Shown: positions 3,844 through 49,082 of the stretch, one piece after another
Layout: the number at the start of each line of letters is the position of its first letter
How positions within the stretch are numbered: the first letter of the stretch is position 1
Origin: a virus
Length of the DNA: 64,000 nt
Strand: one strand, 5' to 3'
Virus record (IMG/VR): IMGVR_UViG_3300043410_001789
Location: 1 to 64,000 of that record
The notes under the pieces: model-generated
What the model was told of the DNA's origin: nothing
The model's input: only the letters and a program-made list of their open reading frames with translations
Databases searched by the model: none
Program-made: the position numbers and the translations under genes

Positions 3844-5259
3844 TTACCTAATAACTTTAGTATTATATTGCTTTTCCCATTGCCAAATATCTTCTTCATC
3901 ATTAAGCAGAGGCTGACCCTTAATATTAAGGCTTGTATTTAGCAATATTGGTACTCCAGTTGCCTCGTAAAACGCCTTCAGAAGCTCGTAGAGGCCACGA
4001 TGTTGGTCCCTGTTAACAGTTTGTACCCTAGAAGTTCCATCTTGATGAACCACTGATGGGATAAGATCTGGCTTAAGGCATCTAGGAGTATATTGCATAT
4101 ATGGTGATGCATATCTCATGTCAAACCATTCGGAAGCATGTTCTTCCATTATGACTGGTGCAAAAGGTCTAAACAATTCTCTTTGTTTAATTCTATTTAC
4201 CTTATTTTTGATATCTGGATCTCTAGGATCTGCCAGGATACTTCTATTTCCTAATGCTCTTGGACCAAACTCTGCTCTTCCAGTGGCTACCGCAGCAATT
4301 TTATTAGTCATTATTTCATCCAAGATTTTTTGGACTGGGTATTCTCCGCCAAGATCATATCCAAGATATGGTCCTTGCCAGTTTAAATGTTTTCCATACA
4401 AGGCTGCAGCTGCACCCAAAGAGCTTCCAGCATCTCCTGGGTTGGGCATAATCCAAATGTCTTCAAAGATATCCCACAAACCTGTGTTTGCCTTACTATT
4501 TAGAGCACAGCCACCCATAAAGACTAACCTTTTCTTACCAGTTTTTTCTAGGGCTAGCCACATAAATTCAGATAGGCGGTGCTCATATACTTTTTGAACA
4601 GCGGCAGCAATATGAAACTTATCGTTATCAGTTATATCCTGATCCCAATCATAAATTCCTTTGTGAAAATTATATTTTTGCTTATAGGTAGAAGGAAAGT
4701 ATGAGGCTACTTTATCATAATACATTTCTGCTTCACCGTAAGCAGCCATGCCCATCATGATGTACTCTTCTTCATTTGGCTTTAATCCAATTAGCTGAGT
4801 AAATGCTGAATAGAACAGTCCATAACTAAAAGGATAGCTCCACTTCTTATATAGGGTCAGGTCATCTCCTTCACCAATCCAGATAGAGCTAGTGGTAAAT
4901 TCTCCAATTGCATCCAACACCACCACAACTGCGTCCTGGAATGGACTTGTGTAGTACCCTGCACAGGCATGAGAATAATGATGCTTGAATGATTTATCGT
5001 AGTGATTTTCTGGCTTCCAATCGCTGGCACCACCCTGAAGTATAAGCCTAGATCTTTTTAATCCTGGTGTTTCATAGTAGGCAAATTTGTCGGGTATGCC
5101 ATAAGAATATGCATCATGCCATAGAGCATCATTTGTATACCAATCATTTTTAATCTTGCTGTATCTTTCAGCATGACCAGCAAATAGAATTTCACCACTA
5201 TCGTTTATTAAAGAGAGGGCAGCATCATGGGAAGTCTCATTGAATCCAAGGATATTCAT
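3844..5259 (-). CDS. Carbamoyltransferase (NodU/CmcH/TobZ family)
   Basis: HDAA, HHYSHA, DAIGE, GGCALN, GDAGSSLGAA, EFGPRALGNRS, RPFAP, DGTSRVQ, NTSLN. Confidence 0.93.
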   Translation of the reverse strand: MNILGFNETSHDAALSLINDSGEILFAGHAERYSKIKNDWYTNDALWHDAYSYGIPDKFAYYETPGLKRSRLILQGGASDWKPENHYDKSFKHHYSHACAGYYTSPFQDAVVVVLDAIGEFTTSSIWIGEGDDLTLYKKWSYPFSYGLFYSAFTQLIGLKPNEEEYIMMGMAAYGEAEMYYDKVASYFPSTYKQKYNFHKGIYDWDQDITDNDKFHIAAAVQKVYEHRLSEFMWLALEKTGKKRLVFMGGCALNSKANTGLWDIFEDIWIMPNPGDAGSSLGAAAALYGKHLNWQGPYLGYDLGGEYPVQKILDEIMTNKIAAVATGRAEFGPRALGNRSILADPRDPDIKNKVNRIKQRELFRPFAPVIMEEHASEWFDMRYASPYMQYTPRCLKPDLIPSVVHQDGTSRVQTVNRDQHRGLYELLKAFYEATGVPILLNTSLNIKGQPLLNDEEDIWQWEKQYNTKVIR

Positions 5260-6133: not shown

Positions 6134-6966
6134 TAGCCTATCCTATTTACCCTAATGTTATACTTCTTGTTTTCATTTGAAAGTAGATCGATGTTAAACT
6201 TTACACTTGGGTCATATGACACATCGTCTGCGTTGTATGGTAGCCTACTAAGTGTCACTCCTTGGAGTGCATGGTCTCTTATAAATACCTGTGCCATCTC
6301 TGAATTACTATTAAGTTCATCTATCATTTGGTTGTACCCATGCTCCAAAGAATATGTTACATAAAGATTTTCTACATTTCTTTTTCTAGAGTCAGTATAT
6401 ATATTGGTATTAGCAGAATATATGTCTGATCTTTTTCTTACCAGCATTGTCATGTATTCTTCAAAACCATAGTATTTTATGTTGGTTGGCACGATTCCTG
6501 GGTCAATCATATTTTTGTCTATAAAGATAAATGCTCTATCGATCCATTGTGTCTTGGTACTTACTGAGCTTGGCTTATAGTTATGTGCAAAAGAAAATTC
6601 ATCTTTCTTAGAAAGACTTATGGGACCATTTCCAGAAATAACGGCATTATGTAATTTAGAAAGCTCTATTGTCTGAGTATCCCAGGAAGGAGAAAGAGTA
6701 ACATCATCTGAAAGAAATAGCACATATCTTGATTTTGATTCTTTTAAAAACTCACTATAAAATTTACCCACTCCATATTGGATATCCCACATAATATGTG
6801 TATAAAAAATATTGGGATTATCTTTAAACGCTACCGTTCTGTCTACTGGATTTTGATCATATATATAGATCTTAACAGCCAGATTTGCATTGCCAAGAAT
6901 GTTTAAGGCAATTGTTGGCAAAATCTTATTTTTATATGAATATAAAAAGACATCAATGCTTTCCAT
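6133..6966 (-). CDS. Glycosyltransferase (GT-A/GT2-like)
   Basis: IDVFLYSY start, YVLFLSDD (DxD-like), YYGFEE. Confidence 0.55.
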   Translation of the reverse strand: MESIDVFLYSYKNKILPTIALNILGNANLAVKIYIYDQNPVDRTVAFKDNPNIFYTHIMWDIQYGVGKFYSEFLKESKSRYVLFLSDDVTLSPSWDTQTIELSKLHNAVISGNGPISLSKKDEFSFAHNYKPSSVSTKTQWIDRAFIFIDKNMIDPGIVPTNIKYYGFEEYMTMLVRKRSDIYSANTNIYTDSRKRNVENLYVTYSLEHGYNQMIDELNSNSEMAQVFIRDHALQGVTLSRLPYNADDVSYDPSVKFNIDLLSNENKKYNIRVNRIG

Positions 6967-7699
6967 TGGATACTCCTAGAAAAAGTTTCTTAATCCATGT
7001 TGTCTTTTTATAATGACCATACATAGAGGACCTTCTGTTCTCTGCCAATAGTTCATGAAAGTCTAACGTTTCCTCTTTGTCGTCAAGCTCAAGCTCCCAG
7101 TTATCTCTCTTGAAAGGAATAATTTGAAATATTGGTGTGCCTTTTGGGATTATTCCACGAAAATTTCTTTTTAGAAAAAACGTTGTGAATACTGGTAATC
7201 CCCAGATATCGGATTCCACTATGCCAGACATTGTATAGAATGGCAGGTCATGCCTATTCATTGGGTGGGTGATCAGGATAGAGTATCCTGGTGGTGTTTC
7301 GTAATACCAGTTCATTCTCCATCCGTAGTGAATTGGGTGACAATTATCTGGCACTGGAAGATCTATCTTTGGCCTTTTGTCTACTAGCAATTTATCTATT
7401 CCCCAAGTTAGCACTGGCTTACCGTCCTTATCCAAGTCTACATGCAAATCATCTTCCAAGACATACATATATCCTGCTGTGAGGGCATCTAGAAAGGGTG
7501 GGCACATCTTAGTAAATACCGCTGCCGAGTCGCTGCCCACTGCGTTATTTGGATGAAGATGTTTTTCACTATTAGAATTTTCAAACTTAGATAGAGAAAC
7601 ATACCACTCTGGCACGTGCCTCGTAGCTGGTTCTGGTACAAGTAGATCTGAATATTCTGGGGAGGTGGGAACAAATTTTATTTTTAGGTGATCGCTCAC
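6953..7699 (-). CDS. Hypothetical protein, paralog 1 of a possibly dUTPase-fold phage family
   Basis: PEWY, TKMCPPFLDALTAGY, ETPPGYS, IIPKGTPIFQIIPFKR. Confidence 0.6.
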   Translation of the reverse strand: MSDHLKIKFVPTSPEYSDLLVPEPATRHVPEWYVSLSKFENSNSEKHLHPNNAVGSDSAAVFTKMCPPFLDALTAGYMYVLEDDLHVDLDKDGKPVLTWGIDKLLVDKRPKIDLPVPDNCHPIHYGWRMNWYYETPPGYSILITHPMNRHDLPFYTMSGIVESDIWGLPVFTTFFLKRNFRGIIPKGTPIFQIIPFKRDNWELELDDKEETLDFHELLAENRRSSMYGHYKKTTWIKKLFLGVSNGKH

Positions 7700-8415
7700 T
7701 TGTATTCTTTCATTACCCTAAACTTGTTTTTATAGGCATTGCTGAATACGCTTCTAAGCTTAAAACCCTGAGTCTTAACTCTTGGCATTGATATCTCTGC
7801 AGGAATTACTTCAGATTCCCAGGCTTCTCTCTTGAAAGGTATTAGTTGAATTATTGGTGTTCCCTGTTTAATTACTCCCTCAAAATCTTTTTCAACTAGG
7901 AAGGATAGGTGACCCTCAGATACAAAATTGTCAGTATCTATCAATCCAGCAAAAGCAAACAGTGGGCTAGGTCTATGTATTGGATTGATAAATAGTGTGC
8001 TATATCCTTCTGGAGTTTCAATAGACCAGAATGGTTGAATTCTTAACAACTGCTTGTGATATTTATTAAGATCAATAGGATATTCGCTATACTGCTCAAA
8101 GCTGTGTGTAGAGAATAGGTCTCCCTTAAATTCATTTAGTGGTCTAGGAATAGAGTATTCTAGCTTGTTGGGGTCTTTTGCGTTGACGTATATATCGCAC
8201 GGTGCTCCAAAGATATAGCCTGCAGTCATAGCATCAAATATTGGCATGCACTTCTTGATGGTAGTGCCAACGTTTCCCTGCTTATAGTCCGTGTGATCTT
8301 GATTTACTGCTGGTTGCTCACGATACCATTCTGGCATACTTTTGGTGGCTGGCTTGGGTGCATCTACAAAATGCGGTGTCTTATCTGAAAATGGGTGAAA
8401 CGATGCCTTTGGCAT
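7696..8415 (-). CDS. Hypothetical protein, paralog 2 of the same family
   Basis: PEWY, TIKKCMPIFDAMTAGY, ETPEGYS, VIKQGTPIIQLIPFKR. Confidence 0.6.
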   Translation of the reverse strand: MPKASFHPFSDKTPHFVDAPKPATKSMPEWYREQPAVNQDHTDYKQGNVGTTIKKCMPIFDAMTAGYIFGAPCDIYVNAKDPNKLEYSIPRPLNEFKGDLFSTHSFEQYSEYPIDLNKYHKQLLRIQPFWSIETPEGYSTLFINPIHRPSPLFAFAGLIDTDNFVSEGHLSFLVEKDFEGVIKQGTPIIQLIPFKREAWESEVIPAEISMPRVKTQGFKLRSVFSNAYKNKFRVMKEYK

Positions 8416-9049
8416 AAAAGCTCCTAACTCTTTCTTCTATTATAGCATTTGACTCTATGATCATGTCAAACATTGGCTCTCCTCTTTTAATTATACCCTG
8501 CTCTGAGTCCTTCATATGCTTGCCTATCTTTTTAAAATAGCATGCGACCATGGGAGGATGTATGGCATGTATGTCCTTTGGGATATAGTTAAAATTAGAA
8601 TTAAGAGGTATGGGCAATATGGCTGAACCAGGAACTGGAACATATTTAACCTTAGTAGGATAATCTAAAATCCAGGGCACATAGAATTTATAAATTTCCT
8701 CTGAGAAACAATCTGGGTGCTGATCAAACGGCATGGCTGTTCTATAGTACTGTCTGACCCAGGTTCTATCTATATTATAAAACCCTACATCTGCATTGTT
8801 AAGTATGTATATATCTGCCTGAGTTTTTTGTCTAAGCACTATTGAGGATTCTGAAATTGAAATAAGTTCTGGTGGTGGGTATAAATACTCTACATATTTA
8901 TTAATTGGCTTAATTATTGAGTCCCCAAATTTTTCTTTATTAATTTGATCAAATAGTACCCATCTGGCTGGAACCAAAGATTCTTCACATATCTTTATAA
9001 AGTCTGGATCTTTAGTTTTACTCCAGATATCACGATCAACTTCTTGCAT
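8381..9049 (-). CDS. Hypothetical protein, possible distant third paralog
   Basis: KFYVPW and C-terminal IIKRGEPMFDMI echo the two neighbours. Confidence 0.45.
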   Translation of the reverse strand: MQEVDRDIWSKTKDPDFIKICEESLVPARWVLFDQINKEKFGDSIIKPINKYVEYLYPPPELISISESSIVLRQKTQADIYILNNADVGFYNIDRTWVRQYYRTAMPFDQHPDCFSEEIYKFYVPWILDYPTKVKYVPVPGSAILPIPLNSNFNYIPKDIHAIHPPMVACYFKKIGKHMKDSEQGIIKRGEPMFDMIIESNAIIEERVRSFYAKGIVSPIFR

Positions 9050-9134: not shown

Positions 9135-9300
9135 ATTTGCCAATCGTGCATCGCTGTTTCTACAGAATTCCTGCCATTGGCTGTTATACCTAGTGGGTTA
9201 GCAGAACAATCTCCATCGGGCTGAACCCCTTCGTATGATGCGTCCACATTGTAGATTTCGGTATAACAATCTCCACATAAGTTGTTCAGACTTATGCTTC
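9135..9300 (-). ncRNA. Candidate structured RNA A (inter-tRNA)
   Basis: Stems CATAAGT/ACTTATG, TGTTATACC/GGTATAACA, GCCAAT/ATTGGC; complementary loops CTGAAC/GTTCAG. Confidence 0.55.
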
Positions 9301-9304
9301 TGAG

Positions 9305-40585: not shown

Positions 40586-41251
40586 TTAAGCCTCTTCTAG
40601 TGTAATAGAGACATTCCACATGTCGTGGTTACTTCCTCCACGACTAACAACTGAATATGAGAAGTCTGAAATGAACATTTCAATTACTTCATTATATTGG
40701 GATAGATTATTTGTTGCTGAAGATGGCCAGGGCAAGCCAAGTTCTTTATAGTTATCATATGCAAGAAATACCCAGAAAGATCCTTGGTGGTTGTTATACC
40801 AATCCAGTAGTTCTACTCCACCAGCACCACCATCAGTAGTGTATCTTGAATCTGGTTGAGCTGGATTGCCAGAAGAATATCCAGTAGTTGGAGCACCTGA
40901 TGTAGTATTAAATCCAGCATTATCAGAAAATGCTCTAGATGGAAGCATGTCCCAAGATATAGAAAGTTCCATTTTATCTGCAATGTGGTACGAACGCATG
41001 CGACCATTGATAGTTCTTTGTCTGCTTTCGATCCTAGTTGGCTTAAAATCTAAGATTTTTCTATTGTCATCTGATAGGATCAAAAAGTTATTGACTAGTG
41101 ATATATCATCAATCATGGTGGGTTCGGTGCCAACCTCATATCCATCTGGTATCCAGAAATAACCATCCTTAGTTCCCTGGGTTTCAGAGAATAGGATTGC
41201 CTGTGGTCTAGAATACTTTCTTCTTCCAGCCAAGTATTGACTAGTTGCCAT
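40586..41251 (-). CDS. Distal-tail-like protein
   Basis: Directly follows tape measure; RTINGRMR, WNVSITLEE. Confidence 0.65.
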   Translation of the reverse strand: MATSQYLAGRRKYSRPQAILFSETQGTKDGYFWIPDGYEVGTEPTMIDDISLVNNFLILSDDNRKILDFKPTRIESRQRTINGRMRSYHIADKMELSISWDMLPSRAFSDNAGFNTTSGAPTTGYSSGNPAQPDSRYTTDGGAGGVELLDWYNNHQGSFWVFLAYDNYKELGLPWPSSATNNLSQYNEVIEMFISDFSYSVVSRGGSNHDMWNVSITLEEA

Positions 41252-44200
41252 AAATAGAACTTCTCCTAATACTTTGTGAATCTATTTGCTTAATCTGTCC
41301 AATTACAACTCTTGCAATTTGGTCTGGGTTAGCATCTGACTTAACATTTACGTTCACTTCATAATTATACATTGAATTGCCAGCGTATGTTCCGTTATTG
41401 ATAGACTTTAGATTATTTACTCCAAATTTATCTACCGCTGATTTAGTAACAATAAACTCTCCTGGGGTAAGCATTGCTGGAATAGTATCAGTTCCTATGG
41501 CCTGACCACCATCGGCAAGGTATTTAGGAATTATTCCACCAGCTGCTTTGGCTAAGCTAGCCTTTGCTCGTGCGTCAACCGCTAGGTTGTTGAGTCCGTA
41601 TGAGGCTGCAATATTAGCAAATTTTAGCAATTCATTAGCATCATCTTTAGATACTGGTGGTGGTACAACTTCTTCCTTTTTAGGAACAGTATAGTCTGTA
41701 ACTGCTTGTGCAGCGAGAGCGTTAGCTTTTGCCAATTCCGCAGCATAGTCAGTAGCTGATGTTTTAGCAAGGTCAATCTTGTTCTGTAGTTCATCCCACT
41801 TTAGTTTTTCAGCATCTAGGGCTGCAAGCTTAAGATCTTTTTCTACTGTTACAAGACGAATTCGTTCTTGTGCTGGCTCTAGCCTCTTTTCTTCAATATC
41901 AAATATTTCTTTTTCAAGACTCTTTACCTTGTCTTCAATTTCAAGACGAGTCATTTCCTTATCTCCAACCTTTACCTTTAGGTTGGCAAGCTCTGTCTTT
42001 CTGGCTTCATCAAGTTGCTTTTGCTGCATATCCATAGCATCTTGTGTGCTCTGGGCTCTCATTTCTTGTGCTGCTCGTGCAGCTGCTGCTATGTCACCCT
42101 GAGATAGTGCATCAGCTAGGGTTAGCTGTTGCTTTTGTTGTGCAGAAATCTTTTGATTAATGTCCCTAATTTTATCCAGGGCATCTTTACGTTCATCATA
42201 CTTTTTGTTAACAGCATCTTCTTGTGTCTGAAGCTCAGTAAGTCCAGCCTGATAATCATCTATTTGATATTTAATCTTGTCAATATCATTCTGTGCAGCT
42301 GAAACTATGGCATTGTCTGCTTGTGTAGCCTTCTTAAAGTCTATATCAATCTTATTTCTATCTGCATCAAACTTGGCGTTTATCTTTGACATAGAGTCAT
42401 TAAACTTTTCTTCTGCTGTCTTTGCATCTTCAACTGCCTGCTTTTGCTGCTTGTAAAGTTCAATGGTCTGCTTAATTGCTGCATTCTTATCTTTAATGTC
42501 TGTAGATGCTTTAATTGCAGCAATTGCTTCGGCAAGACCACTATCTTTTCCAGCTTCTACCGCATCCTTGTATGACATACCAGTTGCAAGAAGTTCTTTT
42601 CTAGCACCGAGTTCATCTTTAGTAGACTTTACAGCTGCTTGTACTGACAGTTGGTAATTTCCAAGAGTAATTGCATTAAATGCATTTTGCAGATCTGCAG
42701 CGTCTTTCTTCATAGTAATAAGACCAGTCTTCTTGTTTATTGTCATAAACTTATCTTGAACTGATTTATCTGCATTGGATATAAAGTCAATAAAGTCTTT
42801 ATTATATCCCTTGTTACCAAGCTGTTGTTCAATACCGTTGTAGAGTAGACCGCCACCCTTCTTTTCAAGAGCACCCATTTTCATCCACTTGTGTAACTCT
42901 TTAAAGCCACCTGCTGCATCTACTGCTGCTTGACGTACCTGCTTAAGCTTTTTCATTATGTCTGCATATGGGTCAGCTTTGGCACCACCGCCAACATCAC
43001 CGCCAGCACCTGGAAGTTTTGCATCTCCAGGTGTAAGTGCTTCAGTTCTTTGCTGAGCCATTTCTGATGCGTATAGATCTCTCTTCTTACCAGAATCCAT
43101 GTTAGACCAATACTCTCTAACTGATGCACCGCCACCTGCATCTGCAATCTTTCTTGCAGTCCAGGCACTTAGTTGGTCTGCAGTTACTGTTTCTTGAATA
43201 GTCAGGAATGTAGTGGTATATACCTTTTGTTGGTCTGGTGGCAAACTATTAAAATAATCTATTTGATCCTGTGCTAGATTCATTCCAGAAGTTTGTGCAA
43301 TTACCTCATACTTTATCTTTTTACCTTTATTTTTAGTAATAGCATCACCAACTGCTTTAATTCCATTTTTAATCTTATTAAGTTTTTCTGATGGCGTTCC
43401 ATCATCCTTAATTAACTGATTCATATCTATAGATTGACCATTACCAAGACCATCGCTCACTCTCTTAATTTCAGATAGTGTGTCCATGGTCTCTTGTGAT
43501 TTGCCATCTGTATTGGCCTCTATTTTTGCAGTAAAGTTTGTAAACTTATTTTTAGCAGCGTCATCGGAGCCGAATAGTGATCCTAATTCGACCATTTGTT
43601 GTTGAGCACCTGGTCCATACTTAATTCCAATAGATGCAATTTTTTCATATACCTCAGAGTGGTGCTGAGGATCAAAAATCCCTTCAAGTCTTTGCAGTTG
43701 GTCTATATTTTCTACAGAAACATTTGCTAGCAAGGTTGCTTTAGTTTGGTTAGTTAGAAAGTTACTGTCTGCAACTCCCTCAAGTGTAGTTTTTGCAACA
43801 TTCTTGATAGGATCCGACATTCCTTCAAACATCAATCTCTTTGATTCTTGAATGTTATCTACAATCTGATTGGCAGATGCATTCTGGGCAGCACCTGCCC
43901 TATAGCTTGACAATCCCTTGATATAGTCATATTCTGTCTTCATTGCTGTTGCAGTTTGATTTTGAAGAGCGAGTCTATCAGTATTATATTTGTCATTTTC
44001 TTTGTTTACGCCTTCTAGATCACCTGCAGCTTGAAGAATCTCCAGTCTTTTTCTGTGCTCAAGTTCTAGGTTGTCTAGGTTTTGCTGTCCCATGCTTAGA
44101 ATATCTTGGAATCCCTGTGCATACTTTGCTTCAGCTGCAGCTACCTGGGTATAGTTAGCTCTACCAAATAGAGTTAGATTATCACTGCTGCTTATTAAAC

Positions 44201-47200
44201 CTTTTGTACTTTGAGTATCTGTTGTAGTTCCTAAAGCTGTTTGCTTTGTAGTTATTATCTCTCCCATAATCTTTATTGGGTCTTTAGATAAATCTTCTCC
44301 ATTAGGACCAAGAATTTTTGTCATTGTTGTTAAAACGCTTATACCAAAATCATAGTCCTTGAGTGTTTCTCCAAGGTTATATGCAATACTAGCAGCCTGT
44401 TCTTTTGTAAGAACATTTGTTGCAACGGCTTGCGATAACTGTGCAGCAACATCAGAGACTGATGTCTGCTTTCCAAACATGATATTGCTTTGCTGAACCG
44501 AAGATACTAACGCTTTTCCAGCTTCAGATTCTACATATGATCCACCAAATGTATTCTTACCTGTCTTAATGTTATACGGAGAACGTTCATCAGCACGGAT
44601 TTTATCCATTACCTCTGTAGGGGTGACCTTACCAGATGCCATGCCAAGATTTTTCATTGCTTCGGCACCAGAAGATAGATCCTTAGCAGTTTTCATTGCT
44701 CCAGCTCTAAAGTTATCTAGATCTTGTTTCATTTGGAATAGTACCATTCCAACAGCACCAATGGCACCAACTGCTAGACCTGCTGGACCAGGTATCATAG
44801 ATGTTGCTGCTGTAAATGCAGCGATAGGACCAATAGCAGATCTAGCAGCATCTCCAACTGCTCCTGGCATTGCAGAAGCCATACCAACTGCCATTGTTAG
44901 ACCCATACCTGCCTGTGCCATTCTTCCAGAAGCCTGAGCAGACATCTGTTTTCCAGTTTGTCTTGTTGCTGCTCCTGCTGCTGCCTGATCCTTAGCTATA
45001 ATAGGCTTGCCAGTCTTTTCGCTGATTGTGGTAAATCTTCCCTTTGAGTCTATACCGTATCCAGCAGCTGCTGCTGCTTTTTCTGTACGTCTGTTACTCA
45101 TACCGCCTAAATAAATCTTACCAGTTCTTGGGTTAGTAACTATCTGAGAATTATTTCCTGGCAATCTAGATGAAAATCTTGTTAATGCGTTTGTTGCATA
45201 GTCTCCACCAACACGTTTTAGGTTAGCACGAATTGCTTGACCGTTTTGACTATTCCATGCTCTTACTGCACTATCTCCAGCCTTGAGGATTCCTGTACCT
45301 GCTGCAGAGGCTGCAGATTTAAGTTTAGGGGTTACTACACCCTGGAATTTATTTCCAAGATCTTGACCCATACCCTTAATTTTTGAGCCAAAGCCTGCAG
45401 CCATTTTTGTACCCTGCTGTTCTGGACGATAGGCTGGTGGTGGAGTAACACCAGGAATAGTTGTTGGCGAACTAAATACATCGTTTGGTGAAGAGAAGTT
45501 AAAGCCCTTCTTTCCTCTGGCATATCCAGGAAGAGTTCCATCAACCATGCCCGAAATGAGTGGAGCATATTTCTTTGACATTCCTGCAGGAATTACGGAT
45601 TCTCCTGGAGAAAGCATTGCTGGGACAACGTCTCCTGCACCCTTTGGACCAGGAACTGAAACAACACCATCCTTAAATCCAAGAACTCGTACAATTCTGC
45701 TAATTCCTGCTCTTCTCATTGCTAGCATCATTGCTGACTTATTTGCAAGAGCATCTCTTTCAATAGCAGCATTTGTGACCTTCATGTCATTGGCTCTATA
45801 TTGTGCATTTTTAGGGCTAGTAAGCTCTGCCTTTGAATACCCTGCATGTAATAATTTAGAATAAGACAAGAATTTTTGAAGCTTTGACACTTCTTGCACC
45901 GACAATCCTGCGGTGTAGTGTGGAGTATTATTTGATATCTCTTCAATTACTTTAGAGAATGCGATTCTTTCTTTTTCATTAAATGATGCATTATCTGCTA
46001 TCTGTGCTTGCAAAGCCTGAATATCTGCCTTAAGGGCTGGATTTTTAGCCATGACATTTGCTGCTGCATCTTTAAATATTTTTGCTCTTGGTCCGCCAGC
46101 TTCTGACTCAAATTCGCTGCTTAGGGTGCTTAGAACATTGTTTTCAATTCTTGGATCTATTCCAAAATAATCTTTTCCCCAAAATTCTGGCTGGAGTTTC
46201 CATGCACCGACAGAAGCCATGTGGCCTCTTTCTGTACCATGATAAGTTTTAGTATTTTTTGGATCATAGCCTGAGTGGTTTCTAGCAATATCTTCTATTG
46301 TAATTTTTCTAGCTACTGGCTTTGGTCCTCTTTGACCAGACTGTTCCCATTCTGTTAATTGTTGTTTATATTTGTTGTCTTTTTCTTTTTGTTTGTCTAC
46401 AACTTCTTGTTGCCAGTACGCACGGTCTTCCCCTGTAGAATTGACAATAGCCTCAAAGTGTGCTTTTGCCATACCTTTTGCCATATCAAATTCTTTTTGA
46501 AACTGTGGATTTTTCAATACAGTATCTGGAATTGTTAAGCCCTTTGTTGGGTTTCCTCTCATGTCAGATCTAAATTTTTCTTTAAACTTTCCATATTCTT
46601 TATTTCTGACACCAGATTCATCAACTGATGGGAACATCTTATTTAAAGTTTCTGCTGCAGAATTTTGATTCAAGGCATTATTCCAAAGAACTGCTCTTTT
46701 GGTAAATTCTGTTACTGGAGCTTGAGTAGATTTTGCAGATACAAAATCAAGCATTGCTAGTTTTGCAGCATGTGGATCTGATGCATGTAGTCTATTAACA
46801 GATCTTTCAATTTCAGCCTTTTGTGCTTCTGTGAGACCATAATTTAATGTGAATATTCCAGCTTTGGTATTGATGGTTGATCCTGCTGGTCTATTGCTAC
46901 CTGTATTTCCAACATCTGCTGTACCCTTGTTAAATCCAGGAAGTTTTCCAGAAACCATTCGTGATATAAAGCCACGGTTCTTAGATGCAATATCTGCTGG
47001 AATAACTGCTTCTCCAGGAGATAGCATAGCTGGAACAACATCACCAGCTCCCTTCGGTCCTGGCACAGATATAATTCCATCTGCCAGCTTCATTCCTCTT
47101 GGCATCTTTCCGCCAGGGCCAGGTACTGTTGCTAGACTTCTACCAGCTACTGCTGCTGCTTCGTATGCTGCTGCAAGTTTTCTAACTGCAGATTCTTCAA

Positions 47201-49082
47201 CTGTAAACTGTTGAGTAAGACTCATGTGTGCTTGGTCTAGTGAAGCTGCTGCAGCTGCAGCGTCAATTTGTTCCGCTGACATATACTGTGTTTGTTGACC
47301 AAGAATACCTGTTCCTTGACCTGCACGGATAAATACATTTCTTAGGAAGTTTCCAGCTTTAATAAGGTTTGCGATACCGTTAGCGATAAGACCAAATGCC
47401 ATAATTGCCATTGGAGCAAGACCACCGAGAACACCGATAATGCCCATAATGAATCCCTTGGTATTGTCACCTAGAGAATTAAACTTGTCAAGGATGTTTG
47501 TAACAAATCCAATAATTGGGGTTAGTAGTTTTAAGAATTGCTCTCCTAGTGGAACAAGCTTGGCCTTCATATCTTCTACTGCTTTTTGGAATTTGTACAT
47601 TGGCGAGTCTTCAACCTTTTTCATTTCTCGCTCAGATAGTACTGAAAGTTCTGCTGCAGTAGCCTTTGTTAACCCAAGAACCCTAGATGCCTGAGATCCT
47701 TCCGCTACAACATTTTGGAATAGGGTTGAGATACGAGCAAACTGGAACTTACCAAACATCATTTCAATTGCTTTTGCACGGTTAAGTGGGTCAAGGGTAT
47801 CAAATGCTTTTGCCATGTCAATAACCATGTTCTTGACATTACCCTTATCTGATTCAACGATTCCCTTTACGTTAATACCAAAACCAGCAAGAAATTCAGA
47901 TGCCTTTTTAGTTGGGTTAATCATAGATGCAATACCAGATTTAATTGCGTTAGCACCTTCAGAGGCATTGATTCCACCTTCACGCATAGCAGTTAGGAAG
48001 AAGGCTAGATCTTTTACGTTACCGCCAAGTTGTTTAATAACAGGTGCAGCTTTTGGAATAGCGGTAGTAAGGTCATCAATTGATGTGATAGTTTGGTTTT
48101 CAACAGCATTTAGGAAGTCAATGTTTCCTGCTAGGTCTTTAGCTGCAATACCAAAAGTGTTTGTTAGAGATGTCGTGGTCTCTAGAGCCTTTTGCTGGTC
48201 AACTCCACCCAATACCGCAAGCTTTGTAGCATTTGCTACTTGGGCAATTAAATCTGCACCAGTCTTACCCATGGCTGCAGCGTCAGCAGCAAGTCCCATG
48301 GTCTTTGAAACGGCTACGCCATATTTAGTATACTCTAGACCAAGCTGCTTGATTTGGTTAACCATCTTGTCAGTATCACCAACAGTAGTGTTAAAGTCTC
48401 CATAAACACGGCGGAGTCTAACAATTTCCTTTTCCATGTTCATGAAGACTCTGGATGCTGCAACTCCAAGCATTGTTAATGGAACTGTAAAACCAACGGT
48501 AAGCTGACGACCTGCCCACTGTGTGTTCTTACCAAAGTTTAGCAAGCTTGTAGAACCCTGCTGAACCAACTTATTCATGAGCTGTTGCTTCTGTGCAACT
48601 ATAGCTTGCTGGGTTGCAAGATTCTGCATATCAAGTGCAAGTGGTCTAACCTTGATGGCTTGCATTGCACCATTGGCATCTCTACCGAGCTTTATGTATT
48701 GTGTCTGTAGACTTTTTACTCGTGACTCTGCTACTCTACCAATTGTGTCAAATTCCGTCTTGAAGAGTCTTCCGAAAGTTTGGGTTGATCCAGCTGCATA
48801 TCTAAAGTACTGGCCCATAGACATCTTATTGCGTTCTAGGGCATGGGTGAAAGATTCTGTTGTACTTTGGACTCTTGTAAGTCCTGCTGAGAATTGTTTT
48901 GTAGCATTAACGGAATTTATTAAATTCCTAGTTAGGTTATTAGAAATGGCAGCATTAGCTGCAGAACCTGATGATCTTAGGGTTTGGTGGAAAGCTGAAA
49001 TCTCTGCTTGTAATGTTTTAAGATTGGCAATTGCACTGGCAGTATCAATACCAATATGTATATTTGACTGAACTTCAGCCAT
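41241..49082 (-). CDS. Tape measure protein with internal repeats and an inserted domain
   Basis: 2613 aa; TP901-type TMP core; TM stretches; three copies of the GD.VPAML.PGE-type motif. Confidence 0.92.
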   Translation of the reverse strand: MAEVQSNIHIGIDTASAIANLKTLQAEISAFHQTLRSSGSAANAAISNNLTRNLINSVNATKQFSAGLTRVQSTTESFTHALERNKMSMGQYFRYAAGSTQTFGRLFKTEFDTIGRVAESRVKSLQTQYIKLGRDANGAMQAIKVRPLALDMQNLATQQAIVAQKQQLMNKLVQQGSTSLLNFGKNTQWAGRQLTVGFTVPLTMLGVAASRVFMNMEKEIVRLRRVYGDFNTTVGDTDKMVNQIKQLGLEYTKYGVAVSKTMGLAADAAAMGKTGADLIAQVANATKLAVLGGVDQQKALETTTSLTNTFGIAAKDLAGNIDFLNAVENQTITSIDDLTTAIPKAAPVIKQLGGNVKDLAFFLTAMREGGINASEGANAIKSGIASMINPTKKASEFLAGFGINVKGIVESDKGNVKNMVIDMAKAFDTLDPLNRAKAIEMMFGKFQFARISTLFQNVVAEGSQASRVLGLTKATAAELSVLSEREMKKVEDSPMYKFQKAVEDMKAKLVPLGEQFLKLLTPIIGFVTNILDKFNSLGDNTKGFIMGIIGVLGGLAPMAIMAFGLIANGIANLIKAGNFLRNVFIRAGQGTGILGQQTQYMSAEQIDAAAAAASLDQAHMSLTQQFTVEESAVRKLAAAYEAAAVAGRSLATVPGPGGKMPRGMKLADGIISVPGPKGAGDVVPAMLSPGEAVIPADIASKNRGFISRMVSGKLPGFNKGTADVGNTGSNRPAGSTINTKAGIFTLNYGLTEAQKAEIERSVNRLHASDPHAAKLAMLDFVSAKSTQAPVTEFTKRAVLWNNALNQNSAAETLNKMFPSVDESGVRNKEYGKFKEKFRSDMRGNPTKGLTIPDTVLKNPQFQKEFDMAKGMAKAHFEAIVNSTGEDRAYWQQEVVDKQKEKDNKYKQQLTEWEQSGQRGPKPVARKITIEDIARNHSGYDPKNTKTYHGTERGHMASVGAWKLQPEFWGKDYFGIDPRIENNVLSTLSSEFESEAGGPRAKIFKDAAANVMAKNPALKADIQALQAQIADNASFNEKERIAFSKVIEEISNNTPHYTAGLSVQEVSKLQKFLSYSKLLHAGYSKAELTSPKNAQYRANDMKVTNAAIERDALANKSAMMLAMRRAGISRIVRVLGFKDGVVSVPGPKGAGDVVPAMLSPGESVIPAGMSKKYAPLISGMVDGTLPGYARGKKGFNFSSPNDVFSSPTTIPGVTPPPAYRPEQQGTKMAAGFGSKIKGMGQDLGNKFQGVVTPKLKSAASAAGTGILKAGDSAVRAWNSQNGQAIRANLKRVGGDYATNALTRFSSRLPGNNSQIVTNPRTGKIYLGGMSNRRTEKAAAAAGYGIDSKGRFTTISEKTGKPIIAKDQAAAGAATRQTGKQMSAQASGRMAQAGMGLTMAVGMASAMPGAVGDAARSAIGPIAAFTAATSMIPGPAGLAVGAIGAVGMVLFQMKQDLDNFRAGAMKTAKDLSSGAEAMKNLGMASGKVTPTEVMDKIRADERSPYNIKTGKNTFGGSYVESEAGKALVSSVQQSNIMFGKQTSVSDVAAQLSQAVATNVLTKEQAASIAYNLGETLKDYDFGISVLTTMTKILGPNGEDLSKDPIKIMGEIITTKQTALGTTTDTQSTKGLISSSDNLTLFGRANYTQVAAAEAKYAQGFQDILSMGQQNLDNLELEHRKRLEILQAAGDLEGVNKENDKYNTDRLALQNQTATAMKTEYDYIKGLSSYRAGAAQNASANQIVDNIQESKRLMFEGMSDPIKNVAKTTLEGVADSNFLTNQTKATLLANVSVENIDQLQRLEGIFDPQHHSEVYEKIASIGIKYGPGAQQQMVELGSLFGSDDAAKNKFTNFTAKIEANTDGKSQETMDTLSEIKRVSDGLGNGQSIDMNQLIKDDGTPSEKLNKIKNGIKAVGDAITKNKGKKIKYEVIAQTSGMNLAQDQIDYFNSLPPDQQKVYTTTFLTIQETVTADQLSAWTARKIADAGGGASVREYWSNMDSGKKRDLYASEMAQQRTEALTPGDAKLPGAGGDVGGGAKADPYADIMKKLKQVRQAAVDAAGGFKELHKWMKMGALEKKGGGLLYNGIEQQLGNKGYNKDFIDFISNADKSVQDKFMTINKKTGLITMKKDAADLQNAFNAITLGNYQLSVQAAVKSTKDELGARKELLATGMSYKDAVEAGKDSGLAEAIAAIKASTDIKDKNAAIKQTIELYKQQKQAVEDAKTAEEKFNDSMSKINAKFDADRNKIDIDFKKATQADNAIVSAAQNDIDKIKYQIDDYQAGLTELQTQEDAVNKKYDERKDALDKIRDINQKISAQQKQQLTLADALSQGDIAAAARAAQEMRAQSTQDAMDMQQKQLDEARKTELANLKVKVGDKEMTRLEIEDKVKSLEKEIFDIEEKRLEPAQERIRLVTVEKDLKLAALDAEKLKWDELQNKIDLAKTSATDYAAELAKANALAAQAVTDYTVPKKEEVVPPPVSKDDANELLKFANIAASYGLNNLAVDARAKASLAKAAGGIIPKYLADGGQAIGTDTIPAMLTPGEFIVTKSAVDKFGVNNLKSINNGTYAGNSMYNYEVNVNVKSDANPDQIARVVIGQIKQIDSQSIRRSSIYGN

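Follow-up and report, generated by a model that had tools for sequence, protein, structure and literature searches.

What fills the 169 nucleotides (nt) that lie between two transfer RNA (tRNA) genes of an uncultured virus? The 64,000-nt stretch of DNA analyzed here (positions 1 to 64,000 of IMG/VR virus record IMGVR_UViG_3300043410_001789, hereafter called the window) contains a minus-strand tRNA array, annotated with ARAGORN and Rfam, which holds both this gap, between tRNA-Asp and tRNA-Thr, and a manA RNA. A preliminary description of the locus had proposed that the gap encodes a separate structured and pseudoknotted noncoding RNA. The two flanking tRNAs were found by ARAGORN as described, and the proposal itself is borne out: window positions 9302-9135, on the minus strand, are a previously undescribed structured noncoding RNA gene, belonging to a family of about 150-183 nt in which every helix drawn in that description covaries among homologues.

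A covarying RNA family

Starting from the gene downstream of the array, we found 15 related viral loci, three of which showed a gap of 167-170 nt after tRNA-Asp that could be aligned with the window gap. A scan of IMG/VR for the first hairpin of the RNA returned 25 stretches (14 true), and a wider pattern, anchored on both hairpin loops and on CTAG-N7-AGC, returned 81, of which 76 were members by inspection and 5 were not. From 65 distinct sequences aligned with MAFFT (alignment A2) we built a covariance model, R1, comprising 172 positions and 33 pairs. The model was run on 92 sources, namely 80 that bore the motif and 12 loci that shared the neighbor gene without it, leaving out the 5 spurious loci and the loci that repeat an RNA sequence (including L023, L025, L034, L072, L077, L095, L101, L103, L115-L117 and L120; L numbers are our handles for loci). 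R1 matched all 80 motif-bearing sources, with scores of 91-168 bits, and none of the 12 others. The family obtained by these pattern scans counts 73 distinct members from IMG/VR viral contigs, whose R1 matches form the rows of alignment A3. This alignment is model-fitted and favors structure somewhat; the MAFFT alignment A2 gave the same picture. In metagenome contigs we found at least 119 stretches and, among the 80 loci listed, at least 28 carried full-length members.

Covariation was counted on A3 for a 38-pair structure made up of helices P1, P2, P3, P4 and P5, plus a pseudoknot between the loops of P1 and P4 (L1 and L4, respectively). The partners could pair in 98.6% of the cells, as against 79.0% after shuffling and 25-39% when the partners were slid by 1-3 columns. 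Compensatory changes, with both sides of the pair altered, affected 26 of the 38 pairs (17.5 in the shuffled and 7-11 in the slid controls), and no shuffle out of 500 attained the observed value for any of five measures. RNAalifold, applied to A2, yielded 33 pairs, 26 of which showed compensatory changes, and recovered the helices drawn beforehand. Since G-U or U-G cells outnumber A-C or C-A cells by 164 to 8, pairing takes place on the tRNA strand, as RNA. We regard it as almost certain that these sequences constitute a real structured RNA family.

The contact between the two hairpin loops had been proposed from the fact that GUUCAG is the exact complement of CUGAAC, and this complementarity is retained in all 73 distinct members, with 100% of the cells paired. 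Five of the six pairs are invariant, and the remaining position covaries: the sixth pair is C-G in 64 members, U-A in 6, U-G in 3 and C-A in none, the scan pattern having allowed all four combinations. On a tree built without these two columns, the state of the sixth pair changed 6 times, with U-A appearing in three lineages and U-G in three others. The loops were fixed in our first pattern, and the ascertainment bias that this entails was checked by looser scans. When every one of the twelve loop positions was open to transitions, two scans produced 12 and 61 stretches; 72 of these were true members, all with canonical loops, and one was spurious. With both loops left free altogether, a scan recovered 40 known members together with 28 new loci, and R1 accepted none of these 28. 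Both loops are therefore conserved in sequence well beyond the needs of pairing, while the stems drift freely.

As summarized in Table 1, the hairpins and helices of the preliminary description are present in the window RNA and covary in its homologues. The first hairpin, P1, gains a terminal G-U pair that extends it to 8 base pairs (bp). The GGG/CCC hairpin (P4) and the GUGG/CCAC helix that encloses it (P3) also covary, one P3 pair being GC in 26 members, AU in 20 and CG in 19 in A3. The supposedly 9-bp stem formed by UGUUAUACC (9268-9260) and GGUAUAACA (9190-9182), that is P2, is present and covaries in eight of its pairs; the ninth, U9268-A9182, is unconserved and is an addition seen in the window. 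The third domain, P5, exists as drawn, its basal helix covaries, and it ends 4 nt short of tRNA-Thr. Its apical part is variable, ranging from about 28 nt down to a loop of 3-5 nt, and is dispensable insofar as some members have it reduced to such a loop.

A further helix absent from the preliminary description, P3b, lies below P4 and closes the internal loop there. Among the 33 members of the window's subtype it reads GCAUC/GA(U)UGC, with all five pairs kept and three wobble-compatible changes, including the window's own G-U. A second subtype (20 members) builds the helix from unrelated sequences, such as UAGAGU/ACUCUA, UUUGAU/AUCAGA and CGGAGU/ACUUUG, with 3-5 pair types at five positions, and the other 20 members have versions of their own, as judged by eye. 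The duplex energy of P3b was non-discriminating (-6.5 kcal/mol observed against -5.9 kcal/mol shuffled).

In the resulting architecture, the arm P2-P3-P3b-P4 ends in L4, and one A separates P2 from P5. Besides this A, conservation outside the helices falls on position 7 of L1, two A's of the linker J1/2, the UA bulge, a bulged G inside P5, and three purine runs, namely the GAA where the internal loop J2/3 begins, another GAA preceding P4 and the GGA that follows it; the scan patterns had prescribed some of these positions. Because the loops and the junction purines (GAA, GAA and GGA) are near-invariant while the stems covary, the RNA would seem to offer a sequence-specific surface rather than a mere scaffold.

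Two other proposed features were present in the window without being general in the family. A second pseudoknot had been suggested between UCUACA (9255-9250) and UGUAGA (9163-9158); both sequences are there, yet they are unconserved, a complement of at least 6 nt occurring in 2 of the 73 members, and the longest complement averages 3.48 nt over the 73 members, against 3.35 nt after shuffling. The 11-nt repeat TGGAGATTGTT does occur twice in the window, which is the single member out of 73 where it does so; the shorter GGAGAU occurs twice in 24 of 73 members and is a subtype feature.

Table 1. Window positions of the tRNA array and of the structural elements of the new RNA.
Feature	Position	Strand	Evidence or remarks
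tRNA-Asn	9764-9692	-	ARAGORN/Rfam
tRNA-Gly	9642-9571	-	ARAGORN/Rfam
manA RNA (Rfam RF01745)	9564-9380	-	69.4 bits (gathering score 55.2)
tRNA-Asp (GUC), upstream flank	9378-9304	-	ARAGORN; Rfam tRNA, 67 bits
Gap of 169 nt, tRNA-Asp to tRNA-Thr	9303-9135	-	
Candidate RNA gene, ~168 nt	9302-9135	-	R1, 154.4 bits, E 1.5e-38
P1 hairpin, 8 bp (9297-9290 with 9282-9275): CAUAAGU 9296-9290, loop L1 CUGAACA 9289-9283, ACUUAUG 9282-9276, plus G-U 9297/9275	9275-9297	-	6/8 pairs double-changed; 98.6% of cells paired
J1/2 linker, GGAGAUU	9268-9274	-	Purines conserved: A9272 in 92%, A9270 in 90% of members
P2 5′ strand, pairs with 9190-9183	9260-9267	-	6/8 pairs double-changed; 98.1% of cells paired
J2/3, 12-nt asymmetric internal loop holding UCUACA	9248-9259	-	Starts with near-invariant GAA (G 97%, A 100%, A 100%)
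P3 5′ strand GUGG (9247-9244), pairs with CCAC 9196-9193	9244-9247	-	3/4 pairs double-changed
P3b 5′ strand GCAUC, pairs with GA(U)UGU 9211-9206, one bulged U	9237-9241	-	Column counts by subtype
P4 hairpin: GGG 9229-9227, 6-nt loop L4 GUUCAG 9226-9221, CCC 9220-9218	9218-9229	-	3/3 pairs double-changed
UA bulge between the 3′ strands of P3 and P2	9191-9192	-	100% in A3, partly forced (two scan patterns required CTAG)
P2 3′ strand	9183-9190	-	As for P2 5′ strand
P5 domain, basal 9181-9173 with 9149-9139 (9 bp, two 1-nt bulges): GCCAAU 9181-9176 with AUUGGC 9144-9139, inner GCA/UGC, apical CUGU-AGAA-ACAG 9165-9154	9139-9181	-	7/9 pairs double-changed; 100% of cells paired
3′ tail AAAU, abuts tRNA-Thr	9135-9138	-	Same-strand tRNA starts near the match end in 67/73
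tRNA-Thr (UGU), downstream flank	9134-9062	-	ARAGORN; Rfam tRNA, 72.1 bits

As far as our searches reach, the family is confined to uncultured phages. The same pattern, scanned over 185,579 prokaryote genomes, gave 65 stretches, about the number expected by chance, none of which resembled a member on inspection or passed R1 at E up to 1. A blastn search (distant mode) of 50,697 GenBank phages returned no match to the window RNA or to three divergent members. The motifs of the two papers by Weinberg are, we presume, contained in Rfam; when the 4227 models of Rfam 15 were searched at E up to 10, nothing matched the gap, the best overlap being a chance-level hit to snoR160, a plant small nucleolar RNA model (18.6 bits, E 9.4). 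The literature searched, short of the supplementary motif catalogues of those two papers (PMC2864571 and PMC5737381), contained no description of the RNA.

The window has no second copy detectable by R1 (the next best score is 6.3 bits), nor has the 72.9-kilobase (kb) record as a whole. At one other locus, L223 (a metagenome contig), we observed a weak second R1 match on the opposite strand (4686-4790, plus strand; 22.3 bits, E 0.0018), about 2.2 kb from the main copy, which could be a chance hit or a degenerate copy.

Placement in tRNA arrays and expression

Of the 73 distinct members, 65 have a same-strand tRNA whose end lies 0-1 nt ahead of the R1 match, and 67 have one that starts at -1 to +2 nt from the match end; the RNA thus occupies its inter-tRNA gap to within 0-2 nt in about 90% of the family. 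Two further members (L056 and L068) have a transfer-messenger RNA (tmRNA) gene 12 nt after the RNA. Departures from this layout comprise two or three loci truncated by the end of a contig and a few whose flanks lie farther away (L044, L099, L111, L113, L119, L074, L080 and L068). The identity of the neighbors is far from fixed: counting tRNA pairs, tmRNA and cases with one side missing, there are 33 flank combinations, of which Asp-Thr is the commonest, with 15 members.

The element can also be missing from an otherwise similar array. At locus L013, tRNA-Asp and tRNA-Thr stand 1 nt apart and the RNA cassette is absent. Likewise, a 464-nt metatranscriptome contig from a relative leaves 2 nt between the positions equivalent to 9134 and 9303 and runs on across tRNA-Asp into manA. 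Because close relatives have the same two tRNAs abutting, the RNA is an optional cassette.

Contigs of one metatranscriptome run provided a weak hint of expression, in that a 195-nt contig aligned with 9181-9267 with 11 differences. The coding flanks had no coverage in this run, an observation that was not used as evidence. A scan for promoters and terminators stayed at chance level, with two promoter-like sites where 1.7 were expected and one terminator-like site where 0.8 were expected; the best promoter-like site, TTGACG-18-TACAAT at 9915-9886, lies upstream of tRNA-Asn and is not evidence either.

Other RNA elements occur in the same arrays. We observed tmRNA genes at L056:5101-5439, L061:992-1331 and L068:2273-2604. 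At L007:3471-3638 and L022:343-516, gaps of about 170 nt between tRNA-Gly and tRNA-Asp gave no Rfam match at E up to 1 and no R1 match; their 3′ 45-50 nt are common to L007, L022, L062, L106 and L027. The element in the Gly-Asp gaps of L007 and L022 may be a third array-embedded RNA.

Probable release and possible action of the RNA

What, then, becomes of such an RNA in the cell? During tRNA maturation, RNase P generates the 5′ end, and precursors devoid of CCA have their 3′ ends trimmed by RNase Z or exonucleases; neither tRNA-Asp nor tRNA-Thr of the window has an encoded CCA. If the RNA is cotranscribed with the array, an RNase P cut at the 5′ end of tRNA-Thr (putative site 9135/9134) would free its 3′ end, while RNase Z or an equivalent activity, cutting behind the upstream CCA-less tRNA, would yield a discrete RNA of about 168 nt. 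With tRNA-processing cuts expected at both ends of the RNA, an array transcript would release such a fragment. We consider it probable, albeit by no means certain, that we are dealing with a stand-alone RNA cut from a tRNA precursor by tRNA-processing enzymes, in a context like that of rnaC and rnaD of phage T4; its release by tRNA processing as a discrete molecule seems to us equally probable.

Once released, the RNA may act in trans during infection, binding a protein or an RNA of the host tRNA or translation machinery. Binding to a partner of that machinery through the invariant surface is a tentative suggestion, which we hold with more doubt than confidence. As to the kind of action, our preferred guess would be a decoy or sponge directed at a tRNA-handling factor, because L4, GUUCAG, resembles the tRNA T-loop sequence GUUCA, and L1 is the complement of L4. 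If this were true, a host defense nuclease or a modification enzyme might be captured, and the phage tRNA supply protected.

Several points weigh against the explanation as a whole. The folding energy of the RNA is unremarkable (minimum free energy of -43 kcal/mol; z is -1.52 for the RNA strand, -1.60 for its complement). The homologues all come from pattern scans that fix some of the conserved motifs, and distant members with other loops or junctions may have been missed. The boundaries of the model were taken from the inter-tRNA gaps, and the finding that the RNA fills its gap is to that extent built in; the near-constant length of the gap between varied tRNA pairs is not built in by this choice of boundaries. 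The contigs from RNA libraries possibly reflect DNA carry-over, derive from relatives and cannot show ends or abundance. The GenBank blastn search found the RNA in no cultured phage, and the relative tested, Streptomyces phage BillNye, gave no R1 match at E up to 1, an empty result that shows little. Covariation supports the loop-loop contact and cannot separate intramolecular from intermolecular kissing. Finally, the decoy idea has as its whole basis the conservation pattern and the T-loop resemblance.

Alternatively, the RNA could be a cis-acting structured spacer, organizing the maturation of the flanking tRNAs (by preventing misfolding or by ordering the RNase P and RNase Z cuts) and degraded afterward. 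Such a role would suit an element embedded between tRNAs at 0-2 nt, which relatives dispense with between the same two tRNAs and for which no partner or target has been identified. However, most junctions of the same arrays measure 0-5 nt and need no spacer, and the 33 flank combinations mean that the RNA is not adapted to any particular tRNA. Moreover, five covarying helices, a conserved loop-loop contact of 6 bp and invariant purines at the junctions, all maintained across 73 variants, are more than a mere spacer would call for. On balance we find this explanation unlikely.

The complementary loops invite a different view, in which they pair between molecules rather than within one. A combined proposal, whereby the loops would join in trans to give head-to-tail dimers or closed rings, and/or GUUCAG/CUGAAC would serve as a T-loop-like decoy for a host factor acting on tRNAs, seems to us slightly less likely than a spacer. 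Self-assembly into dimers or closed rings in the manner of ROOL and GOLLD, taken by itself as an alternative to the tRNA-processing reading, would be less likely again. L1 and L4 are near-invariant as well as complementary, and P1 (8 bp) is far shorter than the arm that carries L4 (P2, P3, P3b and P4, at least 20 bp in total), which means that a contact in cis would need a sharp bend. There is also a precedent, in that ROOL and GOLLD, phage or prophage RNAs often found near tRNA islands, form homo-oligomeric cages according to the excerpted text of PMC12286853. Yet the J2/3 loop, with 12 nt on one side and 2 nt on the other, could fold the arm back and make the contact in cis equally feasible, and the limit of covariation mentioned above applies here in full. 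In addition, ROOL and GOLLD exceed our RNA 3-5 times in length, and it shows no Rfam similarity to either. Were assembly in trans to occur, the RNA would be a minimal relative of the ROOL and GOLLD cages in principle, not by descent.

The conserved unpaired purines and the complexity of the pseudoknotted fold could also suggest a metabolite-sensing aptamer, akin to a riboswitch, that controls downstream read-through or processing, as proposed for manA RNAs; manA, a neighbor in the window, is listed as a riboswitch candidate in the excerpted text of PMC2864571. We judge this improbable, however, as what follows the RNA in 67 of the 73 members is a tRNA, whose identity varies from member to member, and not an open reading frame (ORF). 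Furthermore, no terminator-like element, or element that could sequester a ribosome binding site, is found in the RNA, where P5 is succeeded by a tail of 3-5 nt and then by the tRNA.

A protein-coding role, either as a short translated leader gene (a mini-ORF or attenuator) within the array or as the coding remnant that codon-level conservation would have revealed, finds very little room in the data. The most ORF-like reading starts at GUG 9276 of the window and runs for 28 codons to the conserved UAG of CUAG. Start, frame and stop of this reading are all kept in 8 of the 73 members; 29 members have no start codon at that column, and the ORFs beginning there span 1-49 codons. The distance from the start column to the conserved UAG is spread evenly modulo 3 (27, 24 and 22 members). 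No start codon or frame is conserved over the 73 members, no single frame stays open across the element in more than 9 of them, and the lengths of the element are likewise even across the three classes modulo 3. In the 29 members with at least 20 codons, the invariant L4 is read in two frames (14 members each), plus a third frame in one member. It is therefore the nucleotides that are conserved and not a peptide, given that the invariant L4 block is read in different frames. With frames, starts and stops unconserved, and with compensatory stem changes dominating the variation, we rejected the coding readings.

Equally remote is the view that the element works as DNA (an attachment site, an origin, or a recombination hotspot that could form a cruciform) or is what remains of a decayed tRNA or manA. 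In its favor, tRNA genes are frequent targets of phage integration, and phages with the same tRNA pair may have or lack the cassette. Yet the excess of G-U over A-C denotes pairing on one RNA strand only, a remnant would not keep 98.6% pairing, and neither ARAGORN nor the Rfam tRNA and manA models give a match, even at E up to 10.

Comparison with known RNAs, and the carrier phages

Judging by context, the closest analogues of the RNA are rnaC (species 1) and rnaD (species 2) of phage T4, which share with it a structured nature, the tRNA strand and a position directly beside a phage tRNA. They are discrete RNAs of 119-139 nt and are matured together with the tRNAs. In the T4 annotation, rnaD starts 1 nt after tRNA-Arg, with rnaC following, at the end of the cluster, whereas the new RNA lies between two tRNAs. 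No homology is apparent: with filters off, the best R1 score anywhere on the T4 locus was 6.5 bits, and that match lay outside rnaC and rnaD. The carriers differ too, T4 being a member of the Straboviridae of Escherichia and the new RNA belonging to an uncultured siphovirus-like lake phage. In the excerpted text of PMC9697503, rnaC and rnaD are described as RNAs of unknown function.

The manA RNA of the window, which the preliminary description called RNA B, is also pseudoknotted, about 185 nt long, and fills another inter-tRNA slot of the same array, between tRNA-Gly and tRNA-Asp. In each of the two RNAs the first hairpin is succeeded by a GGAGA-like run, and each holds a YGAAY segment; as had been remarked, UGGAGAAUG and CUGAAC are both present in RNA B. 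The likeness does not extend to the models, however. The manA model gave no match on 9135-9303 at E up to 10; it left the new RNA unmatched in 20 member loci at the gathering threshold, and in L007 at E up to 1. Conversely, R1 had no match on the manA RNA. The pseudoknots differ as well: that of manA joins the 5′ region (GGGAG after the first hairpin) to the 3′ end (CUCCC), whereas in the new RNA two hairpin loops kiss, and the GGAGAU that follows P1 in the window has no complementary run near the 3′ end. Furthermore, the CYGAAY of manA (CUGAAC, CCGAAU or CAGAAC) does not covary with L4 in the 8 sources that carry both RNAs. By either covariance model the two are not homologous, and kinship with RNA B, or a partner common to both, would be speculative.

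Those 8 sources, out of 23 member sources examined (many of the loci being fragments), are the window, L014, L015, L020, L022, L024, L031 and L061. The excerpted text of PMC2864571 describes manA from marine samples, cyanophages and gamma-proteobacteria, mostly in 5′ untranslated regions. Its occurrence inside a lake-phage tRNA array, in the window and in seven related loci, where it behaves as a tRNA-array cassette, is an observation worth noting in itself.

GOLLD and ROOL are structured phage RNAs of unknown function, often located next to tRNA islands and probably cotranscribed with them, according to the excerpted texts of PMC5737381 and PMC12286853, and the latter describes the cages that they form as homo-oligomeric and RNA-only. 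Loop-mediated RNA-RNA contacts are central to their architecture. With about 580 to more than 800 nt they are 3-5 times larger than the new RNA, and neither family gave an Rfam match on it.

No tRNA-like cloverleaf is detected in the RNA: ARAGORN finds only the four flanking tRNAs, and the Rfam tRNA model has no match on 9135-9303. In the D-loop/T-loop elbow of tRNA and in the L2-L3 contact of the purine riboswitch, two paired hairpin loops lock the global fold, and the L1-L4 contact would do likewise here. It comprises, nonetheless, six Watson-Crick pairs, as opposed to two or three tertiary pairs in tRNA, and L4 is a 6-nt loop without the A58 of the T-loop.

Taken with manA, tmRNA, GOLLD, ROOL and rnaC/rnaD, the new RNA strengthens the case that the non-tRNA RNAs of phages serve some purpose linked to tRNAs or translation. 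Phage tRNA arrays, usually read as lists of tRNAs, gain a second tenant, a compact and heavily covarying RNA that would use tRNA-processing sites as its own ends and that moves from array to array as a cassette. Its 26 covarying pairs and the conserved 6-bp contact between its loops make it a well-supported orphan RNA class. At about 170 nt it is small enough for probing, crystallography and cryo-electron microscopy, and represents a simpler model system.

The carriers are uncultured phages that come mostly from freshwater samples, an abundant group of lake phages akin to actinophages and distantly related to Streptomyces phages. Sequencing runs that share at least 1/20 of the sampled words with the window region are labeled mostly as freshwater metagenomes, the shared fractions being small except in three runs, and we did not use them to name a habitat. 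Among cultured phages, the closest to the window are Streptomyces phages of about 127 kb (Stanwilliamsviridae, e.g., BillNye and Wakanda), with 44% identity for the capsid protein and 56% for DnaE. The window has 34-45% G+C, far from these relatives. An actinobacterial host is a reasonable guess; WhiB and tmRNA were not found in the record, which is 66% complete, and give no clue to the host.

The window encodes a portal protein, a protease and a major capsid protein, as well as a DnaE-type polymerase, a primase, a DnaB helicase, a UvsX-like recombinase, a Cas4-like nuclease, a ribonucleotide reductase and sugar-modifying enzymes. Directly downstream of the array (6953-9049, minus strand) we observed three consecutive ORFs of 222, 239 and 248 amino acids with weak DUF6065-like signals; for these and for a 264-amino-acid ORF, no informative family was found. 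The first ORF after the array is preceded by a tRNA gene in all 15 related loci found with that ORF. At L022:1998-2083 lies a tRNA that scores 47.8 bits with the Rfam tRNA-Sec model (gathering score 47) and is probably a tRNA with a long variable arm, not a selenocysteine tRNA. The window also encodes a tape measure protein of 2613 amino acids (41241-49082, minus strand), which implies an unusually long tail.

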